A stretch of 64,000 nucleotides of DNA. Origin: an uncultured Methanosarcinaceae archaeon. GTDB lineage: Archaea; Halobacteriota; Methanosarcinia; Methanosarcinales; Methanosarcinaceae. The notes beneath the pieces are model-generated. The model did no database searches. It worked only from the letters and a program-made list of their open reading frames with translations, and was not told the origin of the DNA. The position numbers and the translations under genes were made by a program. Of this stretch, positions 3,849 to 47,027 are shown one piece after another. Numbering within the stretch: position 1 is the stretch's first letter; each line of letters opens with the position of its first letter. The stretch is taken from assembly GCA_963727895.1 (NCBI GenBank), contig CAVSHT010000005.1, positions 256,001 to 320,000 of the forward strand, given 5' to 3'.

Positions 3849-3853
3849 TGAAT

Positions 3854-20241: not shown

Positions 20242-20426
20242 TTTATTACTATGGGAGTGCAGAGGGTCACGAATACCCCATCCTTTAGAGGCTGTCCGAC
20301 AATTATTGGTAGTAATAAAAAAGCGCTAAAAAGAAAGCAAATAAGACCTTTAAATCAAAAAAGAGAGAATTCTTTGATTACCGAAGGTAATTGTCGGACA
20401 GCCTCTTTAGGGTGGGGTGGCCTCAC
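20242..20426. repeat. IS200/IS605-end-like hairpin element, copy A, interrupted by IS1182-type MITE
   Basis: TTTATTACTATGGGAGTGCAGAGGGTCACGAATACCCCATCC-TTTA-[insert]-TTTA-GGGTGGGGTGGCCTCAC. Confidence 0.7.
20288..20405. mobile_element. 118-bp MITE with IS1182-type TIRs, 4-bp TSD TTTA
   Basis: Perfect TIR GAGGCTGTCCGACAATTA / TAATTGTCGGACAGCCTC; near-identical to 29425-29541; same TIR ends the IS1182 remnant at 46984. Confidence 0.9.
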
Positions 20427-20447
20427 GTAATTTGGTTTTTATTTTGT

Positions 20448-20522
20448 ACATAATATTCTTTAACATAATATTCTTTAACATAATATTCTTTAACATAATA
20501 TTCTTTAACATAATATTCTTTA
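20448..20522. repeat. 15-bp tandem repeat x5
   Basis: (ACATAATATTCTTTA)x5. Confidence 0.95.
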
Positions 20523-20687
20523 TTTTGTTTCAACAATTGAAAAGAATATTTATTGAAACAAATTCTTTACTATCAGGCGTAAAGAAAAAGTTTGATTATA
20601 AGCTCATCCTCAAATCTTTTTTCTTCTAAAATCCATAAAAATTTCAGATCCATATTCAATGAAAAGAAACTTGAGTAATCTTTCAAA

Positions 20688-20739
20688 TATTACCTAAAAA
20701 GTAATACTCCAACTATTACCTAAAAAGTAATACTCCAAC
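20688..20739. repeat. 26-bp tandem duplication
   Basis: (TATTACCTAAAAAGTAATACTCCAAC)x2. Confidence 0.9.
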
Positions 20740-20767
20740 TTTTCTTTTCATATTTATATGAAATTAT

Positions 20768-21507
20768 GGCATTGTTACTTAACTATATCTAGTTCTTTAT
20801 TTATGTATTTCATCAATAGAATAACCGAGTACTTTAGCATTTCAAGACTCTTCGTATAACACTTTGTCTTTCTTCTCAACCTTGCTAGAAAATGCCTCAA
20901 TATGCTGTTATATCCCTCAACTGTAAATGTTTCTGCTTTGGATTGAGTATGAATCGTTTCAGGAAGAAACTCTGCATATGCCCTCCAGTGATCGGTCATC
21001 ACTTCTCCAATCTCTTTTTTCTTCAATTTTGCCCAGAGTAGTTTTCCAGTTTCCGTTCCTCTGCTACCAAAAGAGCAGTTGATGAACTTTTTCCCAACTC
21101 TATCAACAGCAATCCAGATCCAACAATATTTTTTTTGTTACCGATGTAAGTGTGCATCTCATCCATTTCAACAATAGATATCTCATTTTCACTTTTTAGG
21201 TTCTCTAACTCCTGACCAAATTTCTTTATCCATTTTTGGACAGAGACATGACTTACCCCTAAAATTCTTCCTATTGAGCGAAAGCCCAATCCTTCAAGAT
21301 AAAGTTGTAAAGCCTGTCTTTTAACAGAGGCGGAAAAAGCAGTTGATTTTAGCTCTACTGTATAGTTATATCCACAATCAGAGCATTTGTACCGTTGACG
21401 CCCGCCAACTATACCATTCTTTTTGTGACTGGAACTATTACATTTTGGGCAGTTCATGAAGAAATATATGTTATAAGCATATATATCTATTTTTAATTAC
21501 CAATGCC
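20768..21507 (-). mobile_element. IS1-family element, copy 2 (insA/insB apparently intact; no clear TSD)
   Basis: TIRs; insA 21457-21023; A8 -1 frameshift site; insB open to 20775. Confidence 0.95.
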
Positions 21508-21815
21508 TAAATTTTTAAGCGAAAAAATATTTATAATTAAAGAAATTGTTCTTTTAAATTTAAAAATAAATATAATTAATTAGTATATAAATTTAGAACA
21601 AAATCGAAAGATAAATAATAGTCTTCTATAATTTTTATAAGCATTTACACAAAAGAATCTAATAGTTTTATATTATAATTCAATAAATATAATATCATTT
21701 GTTTATATTTATTGAACTCTATATTAAAAAACATTTACAGTTACAATTTCTACTCTAAAATCTCTACCTACAAACTGATTTATTTGAGGTTTTAAAAGCA
21801 AAACTGAGGCATAAG

Positions 21816-22667
21816 ATGGTAACAAAATATATTCAGTACATATTAGAAAACTGGACAAAAATAAGATTTTACATTATAGTCTTCACTTTTTTGCTTGTAC
21901 TGGATATATTTAGTTGTTATATTCTAGTGCATTCCAGTTCTTCTCTTTCATGGCCGAATAATACTGTCTATGTTGTTACAGATGGAAGAGGAAATTTTAA
22001 TTGTAATGGAAATAATGACCAGGTAGAAATAAACAAAGCTCTTGAATATGTCGCAGAAAATCCTCAGTTCACAACCGTTCACCTGAAAGGTCCAAACACA
22101 TACATTCTTTCCGATACTATTCTAATTGGAAATAATACCACCCTTGAAGGTGACCCTACAGCCGTAATAAAGCTTAAAGATAAAGCGGATTGGCCAGCTG
22201 CTAAACCTCTGATAACACAGATTAACAAAACCGGAGCCTATGGAATTACTATAAAAGGATTTGAAATCAATGGAAATCATGATAATAATTTAGATAGACC
22301 AAAGGGATACGGATATTACAATATGATCCATTTTCTCAATTCTACAGATATTCAAGTCCATGATATGTATATGCACGATGGGCATGGGGAAGGATTAAAA
22401 GTAGACAATAGTTACAATATTCAGTTTTATAATAATAGTATATATAAAACGGGGCACAATGGTCTTTTTGATGAAAATTGCCAGAATGTAGATGTCTGGA
22501 ACAACACAATAACTGTCAGGACTGACAGTGGTTTTAGAAATAGAAACTCAAACCATGTAAAAATTCATGATAATAATATAACTTCCTTTTCTGACTGGAG
22601 TGCAGGTGGCGCTGGAATTCTGATTGAGAAAACAACAGGCATTGTTAACGACATTGAAGTATATAAT
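21816..22667 (+). pseudogene. Right-handed beta-helix (disaggregatase-related) surface protein, 3' part lost at an IS1 fragment
   Basis: VYVVTDGRGNFNCNGNNDQVEINKAL...VHLKGPNTY; paralogous to N-terminus of 28752-26083; sequence becomes IS1 at 22668. Confidence 0.85.
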
Positions 22668-23010
22668 ATTTCAACAATAGATATCTCATTTTCACTTTTT
22701 AGGTCCTCTAACTCCTGACCAAATTTCTTTATCCATCTTTGGACAGAAACATGACTCACCCCTAAAAATCTTCCTATTGAACGAAAGCCCAATCCTTCAA
22801 GGTAAAGTTGTAAAGCCTGTATTTTAACAGAAGCGGAAAAAGCAGTTGATTTTAGCTCTACTGTATAGTTATATCCACAATCATGACATTTGTAGCGTTG
22901 ACGCCCACCAACTATACCATTATTTTTGTGACTGGAACTATTGCATCTGGGGCAGTTCATGAAGAAATATACTTTCTAATAGTATATAACTATGTTTAAG
23001 TATCAATGAC
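22668..23010 (-). mobile_element. IS1-family element, copy 3 (left half only)
   Basis: Left TIR GTCATTGATAC at 23010; insA up to ISIVE; insB and right TIR absent. Confidence 0.93.
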
Positions 23011-23218
23011 AAAAATAGATCTCCATGAGACACCTCTACATGTATTGATTTTTCAAATACGTTATCATACTTAAATGGACTATTCCTCAAGTACATAGTA
23101 TAAAATTAGAAAAGGCCAAGCTAGCATGTTTTAATTTTGTAATTTTTTAAGTTATAAATATAAAAAGTCAAAACATCTGAAAAGAAAATAAATATGAAAG
23201 TTAACTGAATTTATTTTC

Positions 23219-24310
23219 TTACCAGACGCTGTTATTTTTTAAAGTTGCCAAAACATTTGTAAATTCATTACTAAATCTGCATTTCTCAAAGTCTGGAGAA
23301 TTCAAGATATTTCTCTTTATTTCCTGCAGTCCAATCAAGAGATTTATGTCATCAGTATACTCAAATCCTTCATCAGATGCGGTGAGATTTTCTGAAAGAA
23401 TTTCAAGAAGCTGAGGATCAAGGTCATTTGTAATATAAGTGTCCAGAATCAGAAGATCTGAAATTCTCTTATAGAAATCAATGAGTTCCTGGTAACTGGG
23501 TATAGGATAGGCTTTTGCCATCTGTTTTTGTCTGTTCAGGTAAATTAGATAACGTGAGATTATGCTTATAATGTTTTCAGTAATCTCTTTTTTAGGGAAT
23601 GCTATTGGGAATCTTTTCAGCATTTGTGAATTAAGGCTAACAGTATCACGTGCTCTATTATGATTCAATACCTCAGGAAATGCCCTTGATATTGAAGAAT
23701 TGAGTACAGCAGTAACATAATGATAGAGTGTAGGGTCTCCAAGAACTACTCCTACTCCATTTGCAAAGACGTGTTTTCCAGTCATGTCGTAAAAAGCATG
23801 CAAACGGGAGTCACTGGTGACTATTATTTTTGGTGTATTTACATAATGCAGGAAACTTTCGTTCTCAAATCGGTAATCGGCAGAAATAAGTTCCTGTTTT
23901 TCAACTTCGGATTGCTGTCTAATTTCCATTAGCTGTTTATAAGCTACGGGAAACTTTGCTTTTAGTTCCTCTGGCTGAAATATTCTGTATTCTTTCCTTA
24001 TGCTGTTATCGAGAATTTCATAAGGTAACATAAACTGATACTGAGTTGACTGTACTGCAAATTCATTTGAAAATGAGCCGTCTACATAAGGATACATTAG
24101 TTCTTTTTCTATGCTTATCTGTTCTATGCTTGCACTCATCGAGTCCCTGCGAATGCAGGATGTATCTGTGCAGCTATCTCTAGAAAGGCCAGCTTTTTGC
24201 AAAAAATCATTTTTGGGGGGTACACCTTCAAAGACTTCTATTGAGATATCTTCAAGGGTTCGATTGATCTTGCTCAGCCTTTCTACAATATAGGCCTTAT
24301 TCCATAACAT
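23219..24310 (-). CDS. Stand-alone TaqI-like C-terminal specificity domain protein (no methyltransferase motifs seen)
   Basis: YPVAY-like KFPVAYKQL, PKIIV, YVTAVLNSS, LKRFPI segments typical of type IIG/methyltransferase C-termini. Confidence 0.6.
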   Translation of the reverse strand: MLWNKAYIVERLSKINRTLEDISIEVFEGVPPKNDFLQKAGLSRDSCTDTSCIRRDSMSASIEQISIEKELMYPYVDGSFSNEFAVQSTQYQFMLPYEILDNSIRKEYRIFQPEELKAKFPVAYKQLMEIRQQSEVEKQELISADYRFENESFLHYVNTPKIIVTSDSRLHAFYDMTGKHVFANGVGVVLGDPTLYHYVTAVLNSSISRAFPEVLNHNRARDTVSLNSQMLKRFPIAFPKKEITENIISIISRYLIYLNRQKQMAKAYPIPSYQELIDFYKRISDLLILDTYITNDLDPQLLEILSENLTASDEGFEYTDDINLLIGLQEIKRNILNSPDFEKCRFSNEFTNVLATLKNNSVW

Positions 24311-24599
24311 ATATTCACTTCTTTTTTATATATAGGAAATTCTGGGTAAAATAATTTCTTTGTCGGTTGGATGCTCAAAAATTATTTTTTAATTTTTAGA
24401 GGAATCTTATTTTAACACCTAAGAATTACCATATCAAATACTTTGAATCTACCTCTTAATATAATAATGTATCTATAATAGCGGTTAACAATTAAAAAAG
24501 GATATTTATATAAACGATCAATAAGAGTCGATGATATTAATTAAATAATTTCTCCCATACAAAATGAGTTTTTTGGAGATTAAAGAAAAAATGTGAGGT

Positions 24600-25888
24600 T
24601 TACAAACTAGAAATGACTTTTAATGTCATTCTTGCATTTTCCAGCATATTATAGTCGTTATTAAAATAAATGTAAACCTTTTTAGGTCCCAATATACAGA
24701 TTTTCCTGATGGTTTCGCTAATTTCTGCCTGGGAATAGTTATAACTGTACCATTCTTCTCTCCCATGCATCCGCATATAACAGTTTTCCGGAGAATATAT
24801 GGTTTATGTAATCCGTTGAGTCTATAGACACAAGGATCACTTTTTTCATATACATGCTTCATCATTTCCAAGAAGTTTTTCATTCCTGATATAGAAAGCA
24901 AAACCTTTCTCCAAGTTTTGCAGCTTCTGCAAACCTGAATACCCTTGAAACATCATCGAATTTGAGAGGACACTTGAAATAGGTAAAAATCAACTAGATG
25001 ATCCATTGGCCTGAAAAGTTTCAGAAAACTTCCAGGATCTCAAGGGAACTTTCATGAAGCTGATGCCAGTGAGTTATAGACCTGTGGACCTTTATGCTTC
25101 ACCTGAGTTTTTTTCTTTTCTGTTCCAGCCTTCAACTTGGTCATACGACGGAAATCTATAATTGGTATTGTTAACTAAACATAGTTAACTCTTTATTTCT
25201 GTATTTCATCAATAGAATAACCTAGTACTTTAGCATTTCAAGACTTTTTTATAACACTTTGTCTTTCTTCTCAATCTTGCCAGAAAATGCTTCAATATGC
25301 TGTTATATCCTTCAACAGTATACGTTTTTGCTTTGGATTGAGTATGGATCTTTTCTGGAAGAAACTCTGCATATGCCCTCCAGTGATCTGTCATCACTTC
25401 TCCAATCTCTTTTTTCTTCAATTTTTCCCAGAGTAGTTTTCCAGTTTCTGTTCCTCTGCTACCAAAAGAGCAGTTGATAAACTTTTTCCCAACTCTATCA
25501 ACAGCAATCCAGATCCAGCAATATTTTTTTTGTTACCGATGTAAGTGTGCATCTTTGGACAGAAACATGACTTACCCCTAAAACTCTTCCTATTGAACGA
25601 AAGCCCAATCCTTCAACATAGAGTTGTAAAGCCTGTCTTTTTACAGAAGCGGAAAAAGCAGTTGATTTTAGCTCTACTGTATAGTTATATCCACAATCAT
25701 GGCATTTGTAGCGTTGACGCCCACCAACTATACCGTTCTTTTTGTGACTGGAACTATTGCATCTGGGGCAGTTAATGAAGAAATAGAGGTTCTCATAATA
25801 AATAACTATAGTTAATTAGCAAAGCCCTATAATTTTCTTTTTATTCCAATCATAGTACCACCCCACTTGTGCCTACAAAATAATCCAT
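24600..25888 (-). pseudogene. DUF72-family gene interrupted by IS1 copy 4 and frameshifted
   Basis: MDYFVGTSG..YDW at 25888; YRFP, IKVHRSITH, KVYIYFNNDYNMLENAR on the other side of the IS. Confidence 0.8.
25164..25826 (-). mobile_element. IS1-family element, copy 4 (internal deletion ~70 bp, ATG->ATT), perfect 8-bp TSD
   Basis: CTATAATT at 25156-25163 and 25827-25834; TIRs GGTATTGTTAAC / GCAAAGCC. Confidence 0.95.
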
Positions 25889-25943
25889 ACAGTTCTCTAA
25901 TATAATAATACCAGATCTATTCTCATTTCATGATTAGAAAGTT

Positions 25944-25975
25944 AGGCAGTTCACATCCTTATCAATGAACTGCCT
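25944..25975. terminator. Hairpin downstream of PKD surface-protein gene
   Basis: AGGCAGTTCA-N12-TGAACTGCCT. Confidence 0.4.
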
Positions 25976-26082
25976 CCCATTCTTGCTTTTCTAGTTGTTT
26001 ATCATTAAAGCAAGCAACTAGAGCTCCCAATAATTTACTGTAGACAACTTACCTCATTTATTGGTTTTTATGACTGACAAGA

Positions 26083-28752
26083 TCACCTTGCAACCAGTAC
26101 TATCTTGCTTGCTGTACTTGATTTCCCGCTATTAGTTGCAGTTAATTTCACAGTAAAAATTCCTATTGTTTTATATGTATGACTTGGGTTTGACTCAGTG
26201 GTTGTCGGACTATTGTCTCCAAAGTCCCACTTTAATGAAGTTGTATTTGTGGATGTATCTGTGAACTTAACTGTGAGAGGAACATGCCCAATCTGAGGTA
26301 CTGCTGTAAAACTTGCTGTTGGCAACCCAGTTATTGCAGTGACAGTTATTGCCTTACTTATAGTATTGGTACCATCTGTATTGCTTACAGTCAGATTAGT
26401 TATGTAATTCCCTGCAGTATTATAGGTGTGTGTTGAATTTGTATCGGTAGATGTGGAACCATCACCAAATTCCCAGTTCCATTTATTTGGATCGTTACTG
26501 GATGTATCATTAAACTGAACCATGAGCGATCCAATCTGTGTTGCAGTAAAGTTTGCAACTGGGGGTGTTGGTACACGGTTTACTGTAATATTCATTGATT
26601 TTACACCGCTTGAACCGTCACTATTTTTTGCAACCAGTGTAACCTTGTAAACACCGACTCCGCTGAATGTATGTTCAGGATTCTTAACTGTTGATGTTTG
26701 ACTATCTCCAAAATTCCATTCCCACTTAGTTGGACTATTAGTGGATGTATCAGTAAACTTCACATTAAGAGGAGTTGTTCCTTCTGTCGTATTTGCAGTA
26801 AAGTTTGCAACTGGTGGCGTTGGTGCACGGTTTACAGTTATATTTATAGATTTAATATTGCTTGAACCGTCACCATTTACTGCAATAAGAGTAACATTGT
26901 AAACACCTACTTCATTAAATGTGTGTTCAGGATTCTGAACTGTAGATGTCTGACTATCTCCAAAATTCCAGTTCCATTTAGTTGGTTTGTTGGTGGATGT
27001 GTCAGTAAATTTCACAGTAAGAGGAGTTGTTCCTTCAGTCTTGTCTGCAGTGAAGCTTGCAACCGGTGGTGTCAGCATACTGTTGACGGTGATAACCATT
27101 AACCTTGCATCACTTGAAACGCCAGCGTTTGTTGCAACTAAGGTAACATTGTATGTTCCTTCCTTACTGAATACATGTACAGGATTTTGCTCGGTTGAAT
27201 TGGTTCCATCTCCAAAGTTCCATTCCCATTTGACTGGATTATTTGTAGACATATCAGTAAACTTAACAGTAAGGGCTGCAGTAAAGTATGCATCTGGGGA
27301 TTTTAATTCTGATTTCGAAGCATAGACAGTATTTCCATCTGGACCTATGTTAATCCTATTTCCATTAGGGTCTGGTTCATTAGAATAATCCGATAAAGGA
27401 TCTCCGGCATCGATACATGGAGAACTTATACTGTCATTTTCCCAACTACTTTCATTCCAACGTCCTGTTTTTGATTTTAAATGATAATCATGATTGTTTC
27501 TGTCTGCATACTGTGGATCTGCCAATATATCTGTAGCTGACGCGCTTACATTTGAATAATCGCTTCCAGAATTATTATATAAACAGTTATTATTTAAAAC
27601 AAAAGAGTGCGTATTTGTGAGTAAATTTGATATGCCAGATCCATTTCCTCCGGCTGATGAATTTTGAGTGTTTGTTATAATGTTATTTTTTACTGTAATT
27701 ACATATCCAGAGCCATCCAAAGATGAAGAAGAATACACATTTTTTTGTGCAATGGCAGATCCATAAGCTCCATCAATCACATTATTTTCAATAGTAGCAT
27801 TGAATCCATCGGACACGATTCCCCCTATTTCGTTACGGTTGGAGGCAATCCCGGTATCATAAATCTTGTTATGGTGAACGTGGACATTTGTCGAGGAATT
27901 TACATAAGATCCTGATCCAAAAATCCAGATTCCAGAAAGCATAGTCCTGTATATCGTGTTATTATATACTTCAATATTGTCCATTTTATAATCTGTTCCT
28001 GCTTTCTGAATTTCGATTCCTGCACCTCCAGAACCTTCAGATGTGATATTATTGTTGTAAAAAGTCACATTATTTGTGTTGTAAACTCTTAGTCCACTGT
28101 TTATTCTGCATATTATCTTATTGTTGTAAGCCTCAACATCTGAACATTTAATGGTTGATAGAACATCATGTCCGAGTAAATGTGCCCCATTGTCATGGAA
28201 TTTTATGTTAGAACTCCTATTAACTCTTAGACCATCTCCATGGCTATTAGTCATGTACATATTACTTACATCAATATTTTGACAATTACTCAAGTAAATA
28301 AAATTGTAGTAACTTTTTCCACTAGTAACGTCATCGTTTCCTTCGCGGTTTCCATCAATAGTAAAATTTTTGATAGTAATATTATGGTTTCCATCGCTAT
28401 TCATTTGTGTAATTAAAGGCTTGTCTACCGGCCAACCTGCATGATCAGCTAGTTTAATTACGGAATTGGGGTCGCCTTCAAGAGTGGTATTATTACCAAT
28501 TAGAAGTGTATCATTAACAACATATGTGAATGGCCCTTTAAGGAAAACAGTTGTATATTCGGGATTAGTTGCCACAAACTCTAGGGCCTGATTTATCTGT
28601 ACGTTATCATTTGTTCCAGTACAATTAAAATCACCATTACCATTCCCAGAAACGTATACTATCGGTGCATATGTTGTACACATAACAGTAGGAATGTTCA
28701 TTAGTATGAATAGACATACAAGAAAAGAAAACAAAAGCTTTCGACTTTTCAT
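26083..28752 (-). CDS. Secreted/cell-surface protein: signal peptide, beta-helix domain, five PKD domains
   Basis: MKSRKLLFSFLVCLF signal; SPCIDAGDP linker; five W.FGD PKD motifs. Confidence 0.93.
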   Translation of the reverse strand: MKSRKLLFSFLVCLFILMNIPTVMCTTYAPIVYVSGNGNGDFNCTGTNDNVQINQALEFVATNPEYTTVFLKGPFTYVVNDTLLIGNNTTLEGDPNSVIKLADHAGWPVDKPLITQMNSDGNHNITIKNFTIDGNREGNDDVTSGKSYYNFIYLSNCQNIDVSNMYMTNSHGDGLRVNRSSNIKFHDNGAHLLGHDVLSTIKCSDVEAYNNKIICRINSGLRVYNTNNVTFYNNNITSEGSGGAGIEIQKAGTDYKMDNIEVYNNTIYRTMLSGIWIFGSGSYVNSSTNVHVHHNKIYDTGIASNRNEIGGIVSDGFNATIENNVIDGAYGSAIAQKNVYSSSSLDGSGYVITVKNNIITNTQNSSAGGNGSGISNLLTNTHSFVLNNNCLYNNSGSDYSNVSASATDILADPQYADRNNHDYHLKSKTGRWNESSWENDSISSPCIDAGDPLSDYSNEPDPNGNRINIGPDGNTVYASKSELKSPDAYFTAALTVKFTDMSTNNPVKWEWNFGDGTNSTEQNPVHVFSKEGTYNVTLVATNAGVSSDARLMVITVNSMLTPPVASFTADKTEGTTPLTVKFTDTSTNKPTKWNWNFGDSQTSTVQNPEHTFNEVGVYNVTLIAVNGDGSSNIKSINITVNRAPTPPVANFTANTTEGTTPLNVKFTDTSTNSPTKWEWNFGDSQTSTVKNPEHTFSGVGVYKVTLVAKNSDGSSGVKSMNITVNRVPTPPVANFTATQIGSLMVQFNDTSSNDPNKWNWEFGDGSTSTDTNSTHTYNTAGNYITNLTVSNTDGTNTISKAITVTAITGLPTASFTAVPQIGHVPLTVKFTDTSTNTTSLKWDFGDNSPTTTESNPSHTYKTIGIFTVKLTATNSGKSSTASKIVLVAR

Positions 28753-29378
28753 TTATTTACCTCTGTTATTGATTATTTGATGTAAAAAATATTTGGAATA
28801 TGTTGGGTTACTTAGTTTACAATCAATAATGTCTCAATAGGGGGCATAATTTCTTAAATATATTAAACTGTAATGTGGGTTTTAAGTTAGTTTCTGTGAT
28901 ATTGTAAATTTGAACTAAGAGCACATTCCAAAAATCAAAATCTGTTTTTGAACTTTGTTTTTCGATAATCAATCAAGTTCATAGTCCTGAAACTAATATT
29001 CTGAAACCTCTTGACGATAAAGAACAAAGGTGGTTTCTGGAAGGTCAGATAGGATAACTCTTCATGAATATCACTGCAATGTGAAAGAAAAAATGCCCTC
29101 AAACAATATAAAAATTTTGATTTAGTGCTAAAAACAAAATTGAATTGATTTGAGGGATAAATCAAAAAATGTTAATAAACAAAATCAAAATCTTGGAAGG
29201 TTGGGTTTATACTTTCAATCCATAAAGTTAAAAAAGTAATAGCCAATGTTGAGACCAACTCCTATAATAATAGTCAACATTTTCAATCATATTATGTATC
29301 ATATGAATATTTTCCTAACCACAAATAATATTATAATTTTATTAGAAAATCATGACTTAAAGTATGTTTTCAATTTTC

Positions 29379-29588
29379 TTTATTACTATGGGAGCGCAGA
29401 GGGTCACGAATACCCTGACCTTTAGAGGCTGTCCGACAATTTATTGGTAGTAATAAAAAAGCGCTAAAAAGAAAGCAAATAAGACCTTTAAATATAAAAA
29501 GAGAATTCTTTGATTACCGAAGGTAATTGTCGGACAGCCTCTTTAGGTCGGGGATGAAATGAACCCTCTGCACTCCCATAGTAATAAA
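29379..29588. repeat. Palindromic IS200/IS605-end-like element, copy B, interrupted by IS1182-type MITE
   Basis: 26-bp arms TTTATTACTATGGGAGCGCAGAGGGT / ACCCTCTGCACTCCCATAGTAATAAA (1 mismatch) around CCCTGACC-TTTA-GGTCGGGG. Confidence 0.8.
29425..29541. mobile_element. 117-bp MITE with IS1182-type TIRs, TSD TTTA
   Basis: GAGGCTGTCCGACAATT ... AATTGTCGGACAGCCTC; TTTA at 29421-29424 and 29542-29545. Confidence 0.9.
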
Positions 29589-30002
29589 CTTTATTTGAGA
29601 TTTAATATCAAATAAAACATAAAAATTAGAGGTTTGATACTTATTAGGACTTATTAAGGAGTTATATGCCAAAAAATACCATATATCTTTTTTCGATTTT
29701 TCGATTTATAGAAGAAATTAAAAAATGGCTGAAAGGTAGTGTATCAAATGTTCTGTAAATCCAAAGTCAAATTTTTAGATACTGAGCATAATTCAGTTCT
29801 TTTAACATTGAATTCTCAAGCTAGCAACTAAGTATGATTTATAATTTATAATTTTGTATATATATATTGAAACAATACTAATAATCAGATTGACAGAATA
29901 ATTAAATGAAAAATTAGTAAGAAAAAATCATAAAATTAAGGTTTCAACATTATTTTTTTAGATCTATTCTTTTAGATACTCTAAGAGTTTATTTATCTTC
30001 TT

Positions 30003-37066: not shown

Positions 37067-37229
37067 CACAAGCCTTTTCAAAAAAGGCTTGAGCGAAAAC
37101 CCCAATGACAACTCCAATGACTGTGGCGTGATAAACCGGCGCAACGGTTTTGATCAAACAATGAAACGGTTGCAGGTTAATTGTTACAGTCCAATGTTTG
37201 TGGATAAACTGACAGACTATATTTTTATA

Positions 37230-38291: not shown

Positions 38292-38295
38292 AAAT

Positions 38296-39204
38296 TTGCA
38301 GATCGAAATACTCGGGTGTGAGTCTTTTGGGGCAAGATCCCTTTCCTTCATTGTAAAAACAGATGAACGGACAATCCTAATTGATCCAGGGGTTGCTCTT
38401 ACGCGTTTACGTTCGGGCCTGCTTCCCCATCCAAGAGAAGTTGCTGCTGCTTTCAGGATAAGAGAAAAAATTCTATCTGCATTTGGACAGGCTACTGATG
38501 TTGTTATCAGTCATTATCACGGGGACCATATGCCAATGAAGGCTGAAGATCCTTATCAACTGCCAATGGAAGCTCTTCCCACCCTTGACGGGATAAATTT
38601 CTGGTGTAAAGGATCAGAAAAAATCTCTTCTCTATCTTTAAAGCGGAGGAATGAGCTTTCAAAGTTTCTTGATTTTTCTCTTCCGGCTTCAGAAGGCATG
38701 AAATCTGGTATTATGGAGTTTTCGTCTCCTGTTTCACATGGAGCAAAGGAAAAAGGCTTTGGGACTGTTATGATGACCTGGATCTGCGAAGGAGATGAGG
38801 TCTTTGTCCATGCTTCAGATATCCAGCTTCTGGACATGGAAGCTGTTCTTAAGGTGCTTGCCTGGAAGCCTACAATTGTTTTTGCCTCAGGTCCTCCGAT
38901 TTATCTATCACACCGTATACCTGATGTAGAAAAAGAAGCTTTGAAAAATGCTTTAGTCCTTGCCAGGAATGTGGATACCTTGACTCTGGACCACCATCTT
39001 CTCAGATCTTTTGAAGGATACAGATGGTTAAAAGAGCTGAATGGAACGGTTAACAACCGAGTACTCTGCGCTGCAGAATTTATGGGAAGATCTCCTGATC
39101 TTCTTGAGGCTCAGAGAAAAAATCTTTATGAAAAAACGCCAGTAACACCAGATTGGCATGAAGCTTATGCAAAGGGTAAAGCAGGTTTTGAAGAATTTCT
39201 CTGA
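38296..39204 (+). CDS. Metallo-beta-lactamase-fold hydrolase (UPF0282-like)
   Basis: ESFGARS, IDPGVAL, SHYHGDH, DHHLLRS. Confidence 0.88.
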   Translation: MQIEILGCESFGARSLSFIVKTDERTILIDPGVALTRLRSGLLPHPREVAAAFRIREKILSAFGQATDVVISHYHGDHMPMKAEDPYQLPMEALPTLDGINFWCKGSEKISSLSLKRRNELSKFLDFSLPASEGMKSGIMEFSSPVSHGAKEKGFGTVMMTWICEGDEVFVHASDIQLLDMEAVLKVLAWKPTIVFASGPPIYLSHRIPDVEKEALKNALVLARNVDTLTLDHHLLRSFEGYRWLKELNGTVNNRVLCAAEFMGRSPDLLEAQRKNLYEKTPVTPDWHEAYAKGKAGFEEFL

Positions 39205-39318
39205 CAAAACGGCTGGAAGAAATTACCAGACCGATACTGTAACATCTCCTGTAACAGGGCTTAACAGGTAACTTTTGAAGTCTCATTTAATGGGGTCAGA
39301 ACTCGCTGGTATAATTGT

Positions 39319-40113
39319 CTATGTTTTATGTATCTGTTCTGAACGCTGTTCGTAATAATCATAAAGTTCTTTTCCCCAGGCAATGGCTCCAGGTTCAAAG
39401 CAAATAATATGCTTCCTGTCAAAAACTGTATTTTTCGGGAAAAGAGCCATTGCCATAAAATTATCTGCTGCCACAATGGCAGGAATTCGTTCACATTCTT
39501 TACATACAAAAAATTTAGCATTTTCTTTTTTAAGGTATTTTTCGGTTTGTTCCCTATAATCTTCAATCCATCTTTTCAGGACGGGTTCCGGGAGAACGAG
39601 CGATATAGGTATTCCTTTTTCGGCGATTTCCAGGTAAAAAGAAGGGAAAAGAGGATGGAAATATGGAATTGCAGCCTCAAGCTTTTTTGCCATCTGAACA
39701 TTTTTTACGTACTCAGGAATCATTTCAAACATATGATCCACTGCAGGTTCGATGATATTGCAGTGTCCAAGCTCGTTAATTCTTAGCAGGAGAAAAGATG
39801 GAATCTCATTTGTTTCTCGGTCTGCCCAGTAATCTGCATTTTCTTCGAGTACAGAAAGAGTATCCAGGAGAGGTTTCATTTTATCAACCACAACTCTACC
39901 AATCTCGCTCAGTTTATAGAAGTTTTTTTCTTGGATTACCATATGCTGCTCTTTGAGTTTTTTTACTTGAGGCTGAACTGAGGTTGCACTGGCGTTAAGG
40001 GCTTTTTTTAATGTCTCGATATCTTTTGGCCCTTCAAGTAGAAGAAGTAAAACATTCTTTCTCTTTTCGGATAGAAGAATTAGAGAGAGTAGAGTATTTT
40101 CCATATCATGCAC
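39319..40113 (-). CDS. Winged-helix transcriptional regulator with DUF1724-type C-terminus
   Basis: LSEKRKNVLLLLLEGPK HTH; AIAWGKELYDYY. Confidence 0.88.
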   Translation of the reverse strand: MHDMENTLLSLILLSEKRKNVLLLLLEGPKDIETLKKALNASATSVQPQVKKLKEQHMVIQEKNFYKLSEIGRVVVDKMKPLLDTLSVLEENADYWADRETNEIPSFLLLRINELGHCNIIEPAVDHMFEMIPEYVKNVQMAKKLEAAIPYFHPLFPSFYLEIAEKGIPISLVLPEPVLKRWIEDYREQTEKYLKKENAKFFVCKECERIPAIVAADNFMAMALFPKNTVFDRKHIICFEPGAIAWGKELYDYYEQRSEQIHKT

Positions 40114-40690
40114 CTTACCAGCTGCCTGCAGATTTGTATTTTAGTGAAATTATGTATATGCAGGCAAGATTTACAGTAAAGAATTCTTTAAACAAAAGCT
40201 GAAGTATATCCATTTATATTGTGAAAACTTGAAAATTAATCGTTGATATATTTATCTCTAAAATTTATAAATACAGGGCATTTTTCATTAAATTATCTGT
40301 TTTAAATGTAATTTTGTTCCTGCATAAATTTCAATTCCTAAACTTAATTTCAAAATGCATAAAATCCCCTGAAAAATACCAATTTGTTCCTTCCTCTCCA
40401 TAAGATAATAAAAACTTAATATCTTTAATAAGTTGCGTTGAAAATTATAACCTGCTTTTATTGAACTAAATGAGATAACCTTTTTTTACATATTTAATTT
40501 TCAGATTATTAAAGCTGGCATAGATAGGTTTTCTTCAACTCCGCAAATATTGCAGGTTTTAGAGTAAGTTTAAACTAAGCAGAACGAAAATAATATTAAA
40601 CAAATCTAGACATAGACAATTTGCAAGCTTAATATTTAAGCTAAATCTCTTCTAAAAAAGGACAAAAATCAAGAAATTTAAAAAAGAACT

Positions 40691-40876
40691 TTAGAAAGAT
40701 GCGTCAACGTAATCAACTGGCCTTTTAAAAACAGCCGCTACTGTGCCATCTTCATCTATATCGTCTGAAAACTTGATAAGTTCCCAGCCTTCAGTTCCCA
40801 GGCTGTTAAGATCTTCTTTTGTCTTCGACCATTCACTAAATCTTATTTCTTTAACATCATATTCCCAGATGGTCAC
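40691..40876 (-). CDS. DUF4177-like small protein
   Basis: WEY...LNSLGTEGWELI...VFKRP; GGAGATGA RBS. Confidence 0.75.
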   Translation of the reverse strand: MTIWEYDVKEIRFSEWSKTKEDLNSLGTEGWELIKFSDDIDEDGTVAAVFKRPVDYVDASF

Positions 40877-41166
40877 TCTAATTCATCTCCAGTAAATTTG
40901 GGTACGATTAACTTATATATTAAGTTGGAACATCTGCTATATGTACCTTTTTAAAAAATAGATTTGAGCTGAAATCAAGTTTAATTGATTTTAAAAATGT
41001 TTATAAATTGACCCAAATCAACTTTAGAATTGACCTCAAACTTACATTCAGAATTGACCTTAAATCAACTCTGGAATTAAGCCGATATTCAAGGTCTTAT
41101 ATGTAAGGAATAAATTAAAAAGAATAAGCTGTTGAGAGCTAATTTCTTTAAAAAAGGTCATACTTC

Positions 41167-41293
41167 GGCTTATTTAGAAATAAACCAAATCCAAACCCGT
41201 TTTCAAATTAGCTCCAAACTCAGCAAGTTTTTAAGCGAACTTAAATTTCAAATTTTTGGGTAAAAACAGAAATTATAGGATTTTTACAAAGCC
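41167..41293. mobile_element. Degenerate MITE related to 16225-16521
   Basis: GGCTTATTTAGAAAT ... GGGTAAAAACAGAAATTATAGGATTTTTACAAAGCC. Confidence 0.45.
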
Positions 41294-41341
41294 TAGATCT
41301 CAACAAGTTTTTAACTAACCCAAATTTCAATAAGCTGAAAC

Positions 41342-42451
41342 TTAAATTTCAATAAGTTCATACTCACGACTTCCAAAGCCTATTTCTTCTCCGTATTTGA
41401 GCTGGTGGGTTCCATCGATCATTGGCCATGCCCCTCTGAATTTATCTGCTCCAGCTTCGTGATTGCATTGAAGAGAGGAGTTAATAAGCCCCTTTTGCTT
41501 ATTTACAAGATCATAGCTTGCCTGATCAAGAGCGATAGGGTCTTTTGAAGCTAAAATTCCGATATCCGGAACAATAGGAGCATCACTCCAGGGTACACAG
41601 TCACAATCAGGCGTGATTTTAACCAGGAAATTTATATAACCAACTTTTCCTTCTTTTCCTTTTACTGCCCCATATGCATATTCAGTAAGACATTCAAGGA
41701 AGTTCGGAATATCGTGTTCCCAATCTATAGTTATAGCACCTGCTGGGCAAACTTCCATACACTGCCCACAGCTTATGCAAATATTGGGCTCAATCATTGA
41801 AACTTCTCCGAGAAGTGAAGAAGCTCCTACAGGACAGATTTTAACGCATTTCTGGCAGCCTATGCACTTCTCCTCAATGACATGCGGGCTTGTACTGAAA
41901 TGCTGATCTTTCTTTCCAGCTGCAGGAGCACAGCCCATAGCGAGATTTTTGATAGCTCCTCCAAAACCTGCTACTATGTGCCCTTTGAAATGGGACATCA
42001 CAATCATAGAGTCAGCAGCAGCAATGTCAGACCCGATTTTTACGGACTTGAAGTGCTTCTGCCCAATGTCTACATCCGCAGCGTTCTGGCTCTTTAAACC
42101 GTCCGATATGATTAACGGTGCTCTGACTACAGAATAATCAAAACCGTGTTCTATTGCCGTTGTGAGGTGGTCAACTGCATTATGCCTGCTGCCTGAGTAA
42201 AGAGTATTAGTGTCCGTAACAAACGGTTTTGCTCCTGCTGCCCTAATCTTTTCTACAACCTGCCGCACAAAAACTGGATTTATATATCCGTCATTCCCGT
42301 ACTCTCCAAAATGGATCTTAATTGCAGTCAGATCGCCTTCTCCAAAGAGTTCAGCAAAACCTGCTTTGTCAAAAAGCTTCTGAATCTTGCTGATTGTGTT
42401 TTCCTCTGGATTTCTTGCTCTTAGATTTGCAAAATAAACTTCGCTTGCCAT
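41342..42451 (-). CDS. DUF362 iron-sulfur protein with 2x[4Fe-4S] ferredoxin insert
   Basis: KIHFGE, SHFKGH, GGAIKNLAMGC, two CxxCxxCxxxCP, PDCDC. Confidence 0.92.
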   Translation of the reverse strand: MASEVYFANLRARNPEENTISKIQKLFDKAGFAELFGEGDLTAIKIHFGEYGNDGYINPVFVRQVVEKIRAAGAKPFVTDTNTLYSGSRHNAVDHLTTAIEHGFDYSVVRAPLIISDGLKSQNAADVDIGQKHFKSVKIGSDIAAADSMIVMSHFKGHIVAGFGGAIKNLAMGCAPAAGKKDQHFSTSPHVIEEKCIGCQKCVKICPVGASSLLGEVSMIEPNICISCGQCMEVCPAGAITIDWEHDIPNFLECLTEYAYGAVKGKEGKVGYINFLVKITPDCDCVPWSDAPIVPDIGILASKDPIALDQASYDLVNKQKGLINSSLQCNHEAGADKFRGAWPMIDGTHQLKYGEEIGFGSREYELIEI

Positions 42452-42712
42452 ATAAGTGCCTCCTAAGTCTGGATAGTGTTTTATCCACGAAAACTATGGA
42501 GTTAAAAAAGTGTTATTCATTTTTAGGCATTGCGCTATTTGAAGAGAACGAAAAAAGTCAGGTAGATATTGTTATTTTATTTTTTGAAATGAAACGCATT
42601 TTTATGATATTTACTTATATATTTTCAGGTTCTAAGATTATACCATGAATTTTACTTCCAAAAAGTATAATTTCCCAAAATGTATTAATCTCTACTTTTA
42701 AATGGTAAAAAG

Positions 42713-45569
42713 GTGGTTATTCTGGATTATTTTCCCCTCGATCTACAAATCTCAAAAATGCCTGAAAGTACTCCCAATCATTACCATGCTGCAATTCTGG
42801 AAAATGGAGAAATTACAGCAACCCATGATTTTGAACTGAGTAGAGACTTGAAGCTTCTTCAGATGCTCAGGCAGATTGAGGAAAAGGTCACAACTCTCAA
42901 ATCCCAGTATGAAGAAACAATCCACACTGAATTTGGGGAAATGCTTTACCATACTGTATTTTCAGAAGAACTTGGAGAGTATTTCAATAAACGTTTCATT
43001 GAAGCTCAGGACAACAATCATGGATTCAGAATTTCCCTTCGGTTTGCTGATAATGTACCAGAAATTGCAGCTTTGCCATGGGAGTATCTGCATAATGGAG
43101 AAGACTTTTTAGTTTGTAGAAGAAACATTTTGCTCTCAAGACTCCCTCCTGAAGCAAAGAAAACAGAGACTCAACCCCTTAATTCTGTTCTCCGAATGCT
43201 CGTAATTATTTCAGGTCCCGATGATCCCAGAGTTTCACCCTTGAATACGGAAAAAGAGCAGGAAATTATTCTAGAAGCCGTGGACAAGCTTCAGAGAAAA
43301 CAGAAGATAAAGGTTGATTTTACAGAAGATGCAACTTTTGAAAATGTTCAGGGTTACCTGAACGAACAGCAATACCACATTGTACATTTTACCGGACATG
43401 GAATAAGCATAAACGGCAAAGGACATCTTGTATTTGAAACCGAAGACAGGAAAGTCAGGCTCATAGACAATAAAACTCTTGCAGACCTTTTTTCAGACAT
43501 GGGCATAAGGCTTGTCGTGCTTAGCTCCTGCGAGTCAGCTAAAGGCTCGGACAAAGAAGCTTTCGGAGATCTTGCCATGCTTTCTAAAAGGAGAATCCCT
43601 GCTGTAGTGGCAATGCAGTATTCGGTACTTGATGACGTGGCAATTAAGTTTGCTTATACTTTTTACAGCACAATTGCAAGCGGAAAACCTGTTGACCTCG
43701 CTCTTAAAGAAGCAAGGATCATGATGAAATACTCGGAAAAAAGCAACGGTCTGGACTTTGCAACCCCAGTGTTGTACCTATCGGATTGCAACTGCGTCCG
43801 GATAGGAGATATAATACCAGAAACTGCGGAATTCGTAAACAAACCCATGATGCTGCCGGATTTGCAGATAATGAAAAAGGGATTCGTCGCCAGGAGACAA
43901 GAGCTTCGACTTCTGGAAAAAGGCTTCAAATCCGATATAAAGAGAGCTGCTATAATTCATGGTTTTGGAGGCATGGGGAAAACAGTCCTTGCAACTCGAC
44001 TTGCGCTAAAGATGAATGAATATTTTGACGGAATTTTAGGGATGAAGTGCACTTCAACCACTCGCCCGGAAGATATCCCGAACAAAATTAACAACTTCCT
44101 GATGATGAAAGGGATTTTCAACTTAAACCAGATCCTCAACCAGCCCGCACTCCTTGAAATTAAAACCTCCTATCTGGTGAACATATTAAACCAGCTACGT
44201 TTCCTGATAATTCTAGATAATTTTGAAGATTGCCTGAACGAAGACCGGGAAGATATTGAAAATCCAGAACTCAAAGCATTTATTCAACAACTTCTGAATG
44301 ACACTTACACAGGCACAAAGTTCATTATAACAATCCGTTATGATTTTGACCCACTGGAAGGTCGGCTCTCGGAAGGTATAGAGCACATTTCCCTTCCCGA
44401 ACTGCATTTCCCGCAGACCAACTGGCTGATGAATAACTACAAAGAACTTGCAGATCTTGAAATTCCGAAAAAACGGCAGATATACGATTTTATAGGGGGG
44501 CATCCATGGACAGTTGGACAATTTGCTAAACTTGCTTCAGTTCAGGGCGTTGACAGTTTGATGCTTGACTTAAAACCCCTGAAAAAAGAACTTATCGAGT
44601 TTACCCTGCTGGACAAATCTTTTTCAAAAATGGATGCTGACGCTAAAAAACTTCTTATCTGCGCCTCAATTTACGAAGAAGCTATTTCTATAGAAGCACT
44701 ATCATGGATTGTGGGAGACGATGAAGAAGCAAGCCCTTCAATCTTAGAACCTCTTCAAAAGCTCATCCAGTGGGGTCTGATCTCAAAAGAGCAGGAATAT
44801 GATGAAACAGTTTACAACGAACACACAATAGTAAGGGATTTCGCACATGAAAAACTTGAAGAAGAAGGATTTGACAAAAAGAAACTCCTTCTCAGAGCTG
44901 CAAGATACTATGAGAATTTAGTTCCCCAAACCAAAAGTATCTGGGATTATCTAAAAGCACGCGACTATTACTTCCAGGCAGAAGATTGGGAAAGTGCAAA
45001 TGAAGTTGTAGAAAATACTTCAGACCTCCTGATCCGCTGGGGACACATTGAACTTGCAATGAATCTTTCAAATGAATCAATCAACACGACATCAGGTGCT
45101 ACAAAATTAAATTGTGAGGGTACTATGGCGAATATTTTCTATAATCTCGGAGACTTAAACACATCATTAAATATATATAATAACATCAAATATAAATATG
45201 AGGAAATGGGGGATATAGGGGGGTTGCAATAACACTGCACCAGATAGGAAATGTTCATTAACCAGATAGGAAATGTTCAAAATGTTCATTAACCAGATAG
45301 GAAATGTTCATTATCTTCAGGGCAACTACGAAGAAGCAGTGAACTTATACAATCAGTCACTGAAAATTGAAGAAGAGCTGGGAAACAAAAGCGAAACTGC
45401 ACAAACATTGCACCAGATTGGAAGAATGGATGAAGAAAATGAAGAATATGCTTTATTACTTAGTTGCTTTTTCAATCTTTGAAGGAATAAATTCACCAAA
45501 TAGAAAGATAGCTGAGAGTTCAATTAATCGATTAAGAGAAAAGCTTGGTGAAGAAGAATTTGAAAATTT
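42713..45569 (+). pseudogene. CHAT (caspase-like) + STAND/NB-ARC-like NTPase + TPR protein; TPR region frameshifted and cut by IS1
   Basis: LPWEYL, HFTGHG, LSSCES, AVVAMQ; GFGGMGKT, LIILDNFE, GGHPW; TPR fragments HQIGNVHYLQGNYEEA in other frames. Confidence 0.9.
45239..45313. repeat. 22-bp triplication with nested 9-bp duplication in a TPR unit
   Basis: ACCAGATAGGAAATGTTCATTA x3, middle unit with extra AAATGTTCA. Confidence 0.9.
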
Positions 45570-46324
45570 GGCATTGATACTTAAACATAGTTATATACTA
45601 TTAGAAAGTATATTTCTTAGAAAGTATATTTCTTCATTAACTGCCCCAGATGCAATAGTTCTAATCACAAAAAGAACGGTATAGTTGGCGGGCGTCAACG
45701 CTATAAATGCCATGATTGTGGATATAACTATACAGTAGAGCTAAAATCAACTGCTTTTTCCGCTTCTGTAAAAAGACAGGCTTTACAACTTTACTTTGAA
45801 GGATTGGGCTTTCGCTCAATAGGACGATTTTTAGGGGTGAGTCATGTTTCTGTCCAAAGATGGATCAAGAAATTTGGTCAGGAGTTAGAGGACCTAAAAA
45901 GTGAAAATGAGATATCTATTGTTAAAATGGATGAGATGCACACTTACATCGGTAACAAAAAAAATATTGCTGGATCTGGATTGCTATTGATAGAGTTGGG
46001 AAAAAGTTCATCAACTGCTCTTTTGGTGGTAGAGGAACGGAAACTGGAAAACTACTCTGGGAAAAATTGAAGAAAAAAGAGATTGGAGAAGTGATGACAG
46101 ATCACTGGAGAGCATATGCAGAGTTTATTCCAGAAAAGATCCATACTCAATCAAAAGCAGAAACATTTACAGTTGAGGGATATAACAGCATATTGAGGCA
46201 TTTTCTAGCAAGATTGAGAAGAAAGACAAAGTGTTATAAAAAAGTCTTGAAATGCTAAAGTACTCGGTTATTCTATTGATGAAATACAGAAATAAAGAAC
46301 TAGATATATTTAAGTAACAATACC
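45570..46324 (+). mobile_element. IS1-family element, copy 7 (ATG->ATT, 16-bp duplication, no TSD)
   Basis: TIRs GGCATTGATAC / GTAACAATACC; (TTAGAAAGTATATTTC)x2 at 45601-45632. Confidence 0.95.
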
Positions 46325-46334
46325 AAATCTATTA

Positions 46335-46524
46335 CATTGGTCATCGGTTAAGGAATTTTCTTGCCTGAAAGCTATCGATTTTGCACTAGAAACCTGTCTT
46401 AAATCTTGGTTTATCTACATGAAATCGATATCCCGTTCCAGCTCATAATCTATTAACATATTTAACAAATGTTAAAGAAATTGACGCAATTTGTCACGAT
46501 TCCTCGCTTAACCGAAGACGCATG
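46335..46524. mobile_element. 190-bp MITE with 18-bp imperfect TIRs flanked by TA, inserted in IS1182 transposase
   Basis: CATTGGTCATCGGTTAAG ... CTTAACCGAAGACGCATG (15/18 match). Confidence 0.75.
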
Positions 46525-46984
46525 TAAAGGAATTGAATGTAAAAAATGTGGATTCAGCAAAAATTGTACAAAAAGAATAGATGGTATCAGGCATTTAAAA
46601 ATAGCTGAATTTTCAAAAGAAAGAAAGCAATTAGCCGATAAAATGGAAACAGAAGAAGCTAAAAGAATATATGGGCAAAGAAAGCAGGTAGTAGAACCTG
46701 CAATTGGAAATTATAAAGAGAATTTAAGGTTTAGAGAATTTTTAACAAGAGGATTGAAATCAATCAGAAACGAATTTAATTTAGTGTGTACTGCAGCTAA
46801 CTTAAGGAAATATGGATTTATTCAAACAAAAACGAGATCAATGGAACGAAAAATATAAATAAAGGGAACTTTTCCCGTTAAGAATTGAACAATAGAAATA
46901 GAAAACGATTTCATAAAGAAAAAAGTTCCCATCTAACAGCAGACAATTTTATTTCATTACTGATAGTAATTGTCGGACAGCCTG
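46525..46984 (+). mobile_element. IS1182-family transposase 3' remnant plus right TIR
   Basis: C..C....CT, YGQRKQVVEPAIGNYK, FLTRGLKS..EFNLVCTAANLRK; TAATTGTCGGACAGCCTG at 46967-46984. Confidence 0.85.
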
Positions 46985-47027
46985 TAAAGTAAGGGGTATT
47001 TGTGACCCTCTGCACTCCCATTGTAAT
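46985..47027 (-). repeat. Left half of the IS200/IS605-end-like hairpin element, copy C
   Basis: Reverse complement ATTACAATGGGAGTGCAGAGGGTCACAAATACCCCTTAC-TTTA abuts the IS1182 TIR. Confidence 0.8.

Follow-up and report, generated by a model that had tools for sequence, protein, structure and literature searches.

IS1182-family elements and their miniature derivatives in the loops of IS200/IS605 end hairpins of Methanosarcinaceae

What would bring three related transposon copies to the same position of the same motif? This question is raised by a 64,000-nt stretch of DNA (the window) from an uncultured Methanosarcinaceae archaeon (assembly GCA_963727895.1, contig CAVSHT010000005.1, positions 256,001 to 320,000), in which two miniature inverted-repeat transposable elements (MITEs) of 117-118 bp (20288-20405 and 29425-29541) and a 460-bp 3′ remnant of an IS1182-family insertion sequence (IS; 46525-46984) each adjoin the motif ATGGGAGYGCAGAGGGTCACRAATACCC..-TTTA. 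A preliminary description of the window had likened this motif to the end hairpin of an IS200/IS605 element and had proposed that the IS1182 element homes into its 4-nt loop. We followed this proposal through the whole genome (3.67 Mb, 36% G+C, 19 contigs, 84% completeness) and its relatives, the named records that share both the MITE and the arms being Methanosarcina, from which we infer the genus. The best overall explanation, which we regard as probable, is that an IS1182 lineage inserts loop-precisely into IS200/IS605 end hairpins and duplicates the loop.

Three occupied hairpins in the window

At site 1, the left arm of an IS200-type hairpin (20242..20283, + strand), made of the left-end-type 5′ arm TTTATTACTATGGGAGTGCAGAGGGTCACGAATA and the stem half CCCCATCC and matching the left end of the 281-bp gene-less derivatives described below, is followed by a first TTTA (20284..20287, +), the 118-bp MITE 1 (20288..20405), a second TTTA (20406..20409, +) and a right arm of right-end type (20410..20440, +), the layout reading ...TTTATTACTATGGGAGTGCAGAGGGTCACGAATACCCCATCC-TTTA-[MITE 20288-20405]-TTTA-GGGTGGGGTGGCCTCACGTAATTTGG.... 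MITE 1 runs from GAGGCTGTCCGACAATT to AATTGTCGGACAGCCTC and has 17-nt terminal inverted repeats (GAGGCTGTCCGACAATT); its IS sense strand is the − strand, because its left 32 nt correspond to the IS 3′ end and its right 40 nt to the IS 5′ end. The right arm, which reads GGGTGGGGTGGCC... from 20410 on, consists of the stem half GGGTGGGG followed by TGGCCTCACGTAATTTGGTTTTT, and the match to the right-end module begins at the loop. Site 1 is a single-hairpin mini-element, in which a left-end 5′ arm is joined to a right-end hairpin. An empty counterpart, the mini-hairpin GGTCACGAATACCCCATCC-TTTA-GGGTGGGGTGGCCGC, occurs in the relative G046 and differs from the joined flanks by one right-arm base.

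Site 2 combines a site-1-type left arm, here of a stand-alone left-end-type hairpin (29379..29420, +; stem half CCCTGACC), with two TTTA copies (29421..29424 and 29542..29545, both +), between them the 117-bp MITE 2 (29425..29541, −), and the right arm GGTCGGGGATGAAATGAACCCTCTGCACTCCCATAGTAATAAA (29546..29588, +). Alignment with MITE 1 and with a further copy on contig C4 of this genome gives MITE 2 the family and orientation of MITE 1. Left and right arms are exact inverted complements, and 8/8 stem positions pair.

At site 3, the IS1182-family remnant (46525..46984, +) aligns with positions 1271-1728 of a full copy 1728 bp long (88% identity), contains the C-terminal DDE_Tnp_1_6 part of the transposase (open reading frame (ORF) 46469-46858; profile match 9.5e-23) and has the right terminal repeat at its end (46968-46984). 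Directly after 46984, the last base of the IS end ...AATTGTCGGACAGCCTG, come TAAA and GTAAGGGGTATTTGTGACCCTCTGCACTCCCAT, in which the motif appears again, now on the − strand: the TAAA (46985..46988) is the host TTTA loop, and the adjoining left arm of a left-end-type IS200 hairpin (46989..47030, −) reads TTGATTACAATGGGAGTGCAGAGGGTCACAAATACCCCTTAC, its partner arm being gone along with the 5′ part of the IS. In place of the first 1270 bp (5′ side) of the IS1182 copy stand a 765-bp IS1-like element (45563..46327) and a 197-bp repeat (46328-46524). About 205 IS1-like copies of at least 650 bp are present in the genome, with ten full or partial matches in the window including 45563-46327, and one such copy truncates the IS1182 remnant. 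Situated between the two elements, the 197-bp repeat has 13 occurrences in the genome, and the first ~20 codons of ORF 46469-46858 come from it.

These readings bear out the layout given in the preliminary description: the three elements lie in one host motif, TTTA stands on both sides of MITE 1 and of MITE 2, and the stem halves differ between the sites (CCCCATCC/GGGTGGGG at site 1, CCCTGACC/GGTCGGGG at site 2 and CCCCTTAC at site 3). The left arm from the window does not fold by itself, as expected of a half-hairpin.

Identity of the host and of the inserted element

The insert-free motif occurs at four places in this genome, as the left end of a 281-bp repeat; a hairpin similar to it lies, in the same strand, at the right end of that repeat, ...GCATACCCCATCC-TTTA-GGGTGGGGTGGCCGCACGCAATTTGATTTT. 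Of 58 further genomes of the genus, 57 contain the 281-bp derivative; in two of these relatives, sequences that match just one end of it led to repeats of 720-730 bp. These are autonomous copies composed of a left-end hairpin, a 154-aa ORF and a right-end hairpin; 11 of them, 719-726 bp long and with the same left and right arms, were found in the two relatives. The ORF product matches Y1_Tnp (2.6e-36) and the IS200/IS605 model NF033573 (138.4 bits, cut-off 55), and it aligns at full length in 10/11 copies and over residues 24-154 only in L197. The 11 copies have unrelated flanks and no target duplication; the left flank ends in TTT in 10/11 and the element ends in GATTT.

On one strand, the left end reads ...GAATACCCCnnnC-TTTA-GnnnGGGGATGAAGTG... 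and the right end ...GCATACCCCATCC-TTTA-GGGTGGGGTGGCC..., that is, both ends carry subterminal same-strand hairpins and there are no terminal inverted repeats. In single-stranded DNA folds of autonomous and better-kept copies, an internal loop separates the outer stem of the right end from a 9-bp inner stem that has TTTA as its loop (z −3.78), and two left ends adopt a similar fold (z −3.2 and −3.5); the C4 gene-less copy, which has degenerate stems, folds poorly (z −1.3). Because the relatives' autonomous copies have these arms and hairpin ends and encode a Y1 transposase, the host is an IS200-type member of the IS200/IS605 family.

Host copies in this genome comprise only gene-less derivatives of 281 bp and 213 bp and single-hairpin minis, and its Y1_Tnp matches are located elsewhere, mostly beside TnpB genes. 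The 213-bp derivative belongs, with 60-bp single-hairpin minis, to a second homologous hairpin family with the loop CTTG, whose arms flank the three IS1182/MITE copies found outside the window. In a relative, one filled hairpin of this second family adjoins a degenerate tnpA-like stretch (33% identity, tblastn), in which no ORF survives. The earlier suggestion that TnpA/TnpB elements serve as hosts thus held in part: the three window sites are gene-less TnpA-type derivatives with neither TnpB nor an Rfam match, and TnpB-element hairpins are hit in relatives. No Rfam family reached its gathering score in the window, and two sub-threshold chance matches fell on host elements and on other loci.

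Exact matches to empty mini-hairpins number six, in 4/59 genomes. Three empty mini-hairpins of G059 (L274, L275 and L276) have the 3-nt loop CCCCATCC-TTA-GGGTGGGG (twice) or a TTTT loop, variants that could be excision footprints or plain variants. At L008 (G000:C3:23067-23110), an IS200-type left-end arm runs into CCCCGCTC-TTGC and then into unrelated sequence starting AGGACTCTAGACG, which may be a different element inserted at the same hairpin position.

The inserted element was identified through copies in relatives, where the first full-IS candidate examined was broken up by another IS. A full copy of 1728 bp (L208:1406-3133) encodes a 511-aa protein (ORF L208:1498-3030) with the domains DUF772 and DDE_Tnp_1_6, which scores 417.8 bits against the NCBIfam IS1182 equivalog NF033551 (cut-off 270). 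Complete copies in relatives number seven, measure 1716-1736 bp and carry (G/C)AGGCTGTCCGACAATT at both ends, a length within the ~1.3-1.95 kb of the IS1182 family. Positions 2-33 of the MITE match the 3′ end of the full-length IS at 88-91% and positions 76-117 its 5′ end at 88%, which agrees with the earlier statement that it is the end similar to the transposase 3′ end that faces the left arm. The MITEs are ORF-less, end like the parent IS, are flanked by a duplication and are multicopy, this genome holding three copies and single genomes of relatives up to 48 ends. The three window elements belong to one lineage of IS1182-family DDE transposon, with an IS of 1.72-1.74 kb and MITEs of ~117 bp that retain just its two ends, the identification originally proposed.

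Besides the window remnant, the IS1182 fragments of this genome are a 5′ remnant at C5:20126 and a 3′ end at C11:115253, and besides the two window MITEs there is one at C4:382898. The second IS1182 remnant carries DUF772. At L001:942-1620 (= G000:C5:20741-21420), the 5′ remnant is cut off by a 187-aa TnpB fragment, and the right end of that C5 TnpB element, ...CCCCTGAGTC-TTTA-GCTCAGGGGTAGTTCAC, is empty. Two further features of the window are recorded here: a perfect 15-bp tandem repeat, ACATAATATTCTTTA, in 5 copies (20448-20522), which starts 8 bp past the right arm of site 1, and, just upstream of the IS1-like element, an 839-aa ORF (42713-45232) followed by short fragment ORFs (the whole spanning 42713-45482), a gene that may have been truncated by the IS cluster.

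Loop duplication, target preference and independence of the insertions

For loop duplication we pooled 57 complete elements, 50 of them MITE-sized and 7 IS-sized; they come from the genus, with a few loci of the same order, and duplicates and the mixed scan of the named collection were excluded. An identical 4-mer stands on both sides of 41/57, and a further 8 match at 3/4 positions. The duplicated 4-mer follows the local loop (TTTA/TAAA in 32, CAAG/CTTG in 6, TTCA/TGAA in 2 and TATA in 1), and the flanking octamers pair at 7/8 positions or more in 25/57, compared with 2.4% of random positions. A pairing search that allowed up to 4 mismatches returned spurious pairs and was set aside.

Single loci present the arrangement directly. 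One IS200 copy with a full-length tnpA has an intact IS1182 element in its right-end hairpin, at the TTCA loop, and TTCA is duplicated. A 281-bp-type derivative (L279:380-980, G066:C30) holds one MITE in the loop of each of its hairpins, the two being near-identical, in the same orientation and each flanked by TTTA. At L277 (G007:C54), an apparently intact TnpB gene of 421 aa (2801-4066), whose own right end is intact, is preceded at a distance of 90 bp by a MITE (2594-2709) in the TTTA loop of a left-end hairpin. At least three hairpin families are used, each with a duplication that matches its own loop.

The same counts bear on the idea that the arms are long terminal inverted repeats of the IS1182 element itself and that there is no separate host. 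Two-sided arms are indeed mutually inverted and conserved over ~35-45 nt beside the terminal repeat, bacteria included, and the two 4-mers of L210, CAAG and CTTG, are inverted in the way that an extended inverted repeat predicts. Against this, IS-free hairpins with a single loop exist here and in relatives, the same arms bound the autonomous tnpA element, and the 4-mers beside the terminal repeat are direct rather than inverted in the 41 elements. We consider arms of this kind extremely improbable, and the extended terminal repeat was rejected as contradicted by the empty hairpins and the autonomous IS200 copies.

How strongly the IS1182 lineage prefers these hairpins was assessed by scanning this genome for the 16-nt core of the terminal repeat with up to 2 mismatches. 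Eight of the 11 matches belong to six elements, all in IS200-type hairpins; the remaining three have 2 mismatches each and unrelated flanks, where simple arithmetic predicts ~2 such matches by chance. The site pattern is therefore not a chance one, since every element lies in such a hairpin and the stray matches come to about the number expected. Empty hairpins amount to ~20 in this genome (4 left and 4 right of family 1, 5 left and 3 right of family 2, and 4 minis), as counted by BLAST with the hairpin modules; a scan that demands near-perfect stems recovers only 4 members. None of the 825 generic hairpins with an 8-bp stem and a 4-nt loop in this genome is used, a scan from which only total counts were taken.

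Of 24 other genomes sampled from the genus, 19 have the terminal repeat, for the most part in pairs ~100 bp apart. For the two richest complete genomes, G007 and G023, every listed end was taken. IS200/IS605-type arms adjoin 46/54 ends in G007 and 28/31 in G023; the G007 figure falls to 35/54 when the loosest class is left out, and both values are given because this class, a left-arm regular expression for TnpB-type right ends, is too loose and matches 7.5% of random 47-mers. By the same classification, 9.5% of random 47-mers count as arms, and 2% when that class is dropped. TTTA or TAAA stands next to 43/54 ends in G007, and TTTA, TAAA, CTTG or CAAG next to 24/31 in G023. The arms hit in relatives include both IS200 families and hairpins identical to the TnpB right end ...CCCCTGAGTC-TTTA-GCTCAGGGGTAGTTCAC of this genome. 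The copies thus lie in related flanks, and homing into the loop, as first proposed for three sites, is supported by 6/6 elements in this genome and by those of the relatives.

Would any hairpin do? The elements might enter every palindrome that can be extruded, IS200/IS605 ends dominating as the commonest GC-based long palindromes of an AT-rich genome and through selection against insertions elsewhere, for instance in terminators and genes. In favor of this, the elements occupy several hairpin families, the 4-mer that is duplicated changes with the loop (TTTA, CTTG, TTCA, TAAG, CAGG), the same terminal repeat occurs in a bacterial GGCAGCC-TAAA-GGCTGCC hairpin, and 8/54 ends in G007 fall outside the arm classes, most of them still ending in TTTA or TAAA; IS1272, too, is described as targeting hairpins without a sequence consensus. 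Such indifference is hard to square with the 825 unused hairpins, 31 of which have at least 5 G-C pairs, when ~26 IS200-family hairpins, many of them imperfect, hold all six elements. Nearly all used stems start with CCCC/GGGG, and CCCCGCAGC-WWG flanks beside the same terminal repeat recur even in Nitrospirota records. General hairpin targeting appears to us unlikely, though well worth keeping in mind, and we prefer targeting of the IS200/IS605 ends.

The same 16-nt terminal repeat was also noticed in records of the Planctomycetes-Verrucomicrobia-Chlamydiae (PVC) group, Nitrospirota and Dadabacteria (L046, L055, L065, L082, L054, L058 and L059). L046, L065 and L082 are MITE-like pairs flanked by a duplicated 4-mer within a hairpin, and in one Nitrospirae metagenome-assembled genome the repeat has CCCCGCAGCTTG flanks conserved over ~35 nt. 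Single matches in the 596-Gb collection carry no weight, because an exact 16-mer is expected there ~280 times by chance (arithmetic).

The number of insertion events was the next point at issue. In this genome the IS 3′ end faces the left arm of the hairpin in 6/6 elements, and the uniform orientation reported for the window holds to that extent; genus-wide it does not, since assignable ends divide 22 vs 15 and the MITEs of 22 left-arm/MITE/right-arm composites 13 vs 9. Together with the several hairpin families and the loop-following 4-mers, these mixed orientations support many independent insertions, as the preliminary description had argued from the stems.

The opposite view would be that one or a few ancient insertions were multiplied with the host, by IS200 transposition or by duplication, and that the window sites are not independent. 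A left arm with the stem CCCTGACC and an IS or MITE does recur in several genomes, the composites are far commoner than empty mini-hairpins, and the distances between arms and between MITEs are weakly correlated (Mantel r 0.30, reached by 39/2000 permutations). The three window sites, in contrast, differ in stem sequence and in the type of right arm, composites of the same kind hold MITEs of both orientations (the 13 and 9 above), left-end, right-end, family-2 and TnpB-type hairpins each duplicate their own loop, and one gene-less derivative bears two separate insertions; the composites are not one unit. A split hairpin, moreover, should cease to be a substrate of TnpA, judging by IS608 TnpA in general. 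Copying as a unit is thus a very unlikely account of the whole set.

Several observations nevertheless weigh against loop-precise, independent insertion into IS200/IS605 ends as a complete account. The weak arm-MITE correlation and the recurrent filled arm variants imply that some copies are orthologous or were copied along with the host. No orthologous filled/empty pair was found when site 2 with 700-bp flanks was compared with 59 genomes of the genus, which returned different contigs at 72-76% identity without synteny, and insertion is for this reason deduced from paralogous empty hairpins. The stem halves do not pair in many composites (32/57 score 6/8 or less), many of which unite the left arm of a left end with the right arm of a right end. 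Three complete elements, L210 (G041), L014 (G006) and L020 (G015), lack a direct duplication; their two flanks derive from different hairpins, or their 4-mers are inverted rather than direct, and they look like products of recombination between copies. Non-pairing stems and absent duplications require secondary recombination or insertion into degenerate hairpins. The bacterial insertions at L046, L065 and L082 duplicate the loop in unrelated stems, and since L046 sits in the loop of such a stem, it favors recognition of structure over specialization on IS200. Finally, no intact IS1182 copy was found in this genome, so that no IS1182 activity can be claimed in it.

A proposed mechanism and its place among known systems

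Under the explanation that we prefer, the transposase would pick a DNA hairpin or cruciform as its target and may in addition read sequence (the CCCC/GGGG base of the stem, the outer stem), the two transposon ends would be joined at both edges of the 4-nt loop, one per strand, and repair of this presumed 4-nt stagger would then duplicate exactly the loop, TTTA in the window. The hairpins used in Methanosarcina-like genomes are overwhelmingly the subterminal left-end and right-end hairpins of IS200/IS605 elements, with autonomous IS200 copies, gene-less 281-/213-bp derivatives, single-hairpin minis and the ends of TnpB elements as hosts. These hairpins are the binding sites of the Y1 transposase TnpA, and the inserts most likely immobilize the host element, because they split its hairpin by 0.1-1.7 kb. 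Same-orientation inserts in both hairpins of one element would set up an interior deletion: recombination between them would remove the IS200 interior and leave chimeras of left and right arm, the doubly filled G066 element being the expected precursor. Insertion into pre-existing minis would be a second route to such chimeras.

Whether the IS gains anything from landing in selfish DNA can be put only as hypotheses, and those offered earlier (a safe haven, hitch-hiking, suppression of TnpB elements) are of this kind. A bolder version, which we regard as possible but doubtful, casts the IS1182 lineage of Methanosarcinales, and apparently of several bacterial phyla, as a dedicated parasite that reads the TnpA-binding hairpin (CCCC/GGGG stem, 4-nt loop), switches off TnpA/TnpB elements and deletes their interiors via paired same-orientation inserts. 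If true, this would be a natural layer of transposon-versus-transposon control acting on the ancestors of Cas12.

DDE transposases that choose their target by structure are poorly understood, and the present system offers dozens of natural, nucleotide-precise integrations on a defined and easily mutated target. It also shows that another transposon has its hot spots in the hairpins by which IS200/IS605 and TnpB elements are recognized, elements now widely followed as the origin of RNA-guided nucleases, and it bears on the decay of elements, on the build-up of gene-less derivatives and single-hairpin relics and on the annotation of nested repeats in archaea. A literature search, with ISfinder and TnPedia, which may record a related target preference, outside its scope, returned no report of an archaeal IS1182 lineage with MITEs, of IS1182 elements in Methanosarcina or in IS200/IS605 hairpins, of loop-exact duplication as a regular outcome or of IS200/TnpB end hairpins as a preferred target.

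The gene-less 281-bp and 213-bp hosts are what we take to be palindrome-associated transposable elements (PATEs), gene-less derivatives of IS200/IS605 elements; like these, they keep the left-end and right-end IS200-type hairpins without tnpA. They differ in that they matter here as targets, and the 60-85-bp single-hairpin minis are a further reduction. The inserts in turn resemble other MITEs of DDE insertion sequences in size (117-118 bp), parent-identical terminal repeats, absence of an ORF, flanking duplication and tens of copies per genome in relatives, with no difference in kind; the point of interest is their target.

Another group of elements enters repetitive extragenic palindromic (REP) sequences, and one of them, IS1397, reportedly does so within the loop and duplicates 3-4 bp. 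Members of the IS3, IS110, IS4, IS256 and IS5 families have been reported at REP sequences (PMC1525189), which resemble the subterminal hairpins of IS200/IS605 elements and are handled by Y1 transposases (PMC3333891). These elements (IS1397, ISKpn1 and ISPsy8 of IS3; IS621, ISPpu9 and ISPpu10 of IS110; ISRm22 of IS4) likewise have a repeated extragenic palindrome as their target, and the same safe-haven logic applies to them. In contrast to our case, IS1182 is not among the five families listed in PMC1525189, and the targets there are domesticated bacterial REP repeats and bacterial interspersed mosaic elements (BIMEs), whereas here functional ends of autonomous IS200 and TnpB elements are among the targets.

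The closest comparison is with IS1272/TnSha1 of staphylococci, which has the same transposase family (NF033551) and also uses a hairpin as its target. In PMC4923244 and PMC5678879, IS1272, an IS1182-family member, is described as targeting stem-loops, and Siguier et al. 2015 is quoted there for the targeting of palindromes by some IS1182 members. The model in PMC5678879 has the palindrome extrude as a cruciform, the two 3′ ends of the transposon attacking the two hairpins; in a variant of it, attack at the 5′ edge of each loop yields a duplication of the loop only. Our data fit this structure-dependent model, and recognition of a cruciform by the present transposase would be its counterpart. 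The outcomes are unlike: IS1272 is reported to remove part or all of the stem-loop and to leave no duplication, and to target terminators and assorted inverted repeats, whereas here the arms are retained, the 4-nt loop is duplicated in 41/57 complete elements, and insertion is directed, in archaea, at the end hairpins of a single transposon class. Because IS1272, as described, deletes the stem-loop without duplication, the IS1182 lineage studied here uses a different outcome of the same principle. The targeting of hairpins by IS1182 elements and of REP sequences by other IS is already published, and the textbook picture is unchanged; what is new is loop-precise insertion directed at the ends of another transposon.

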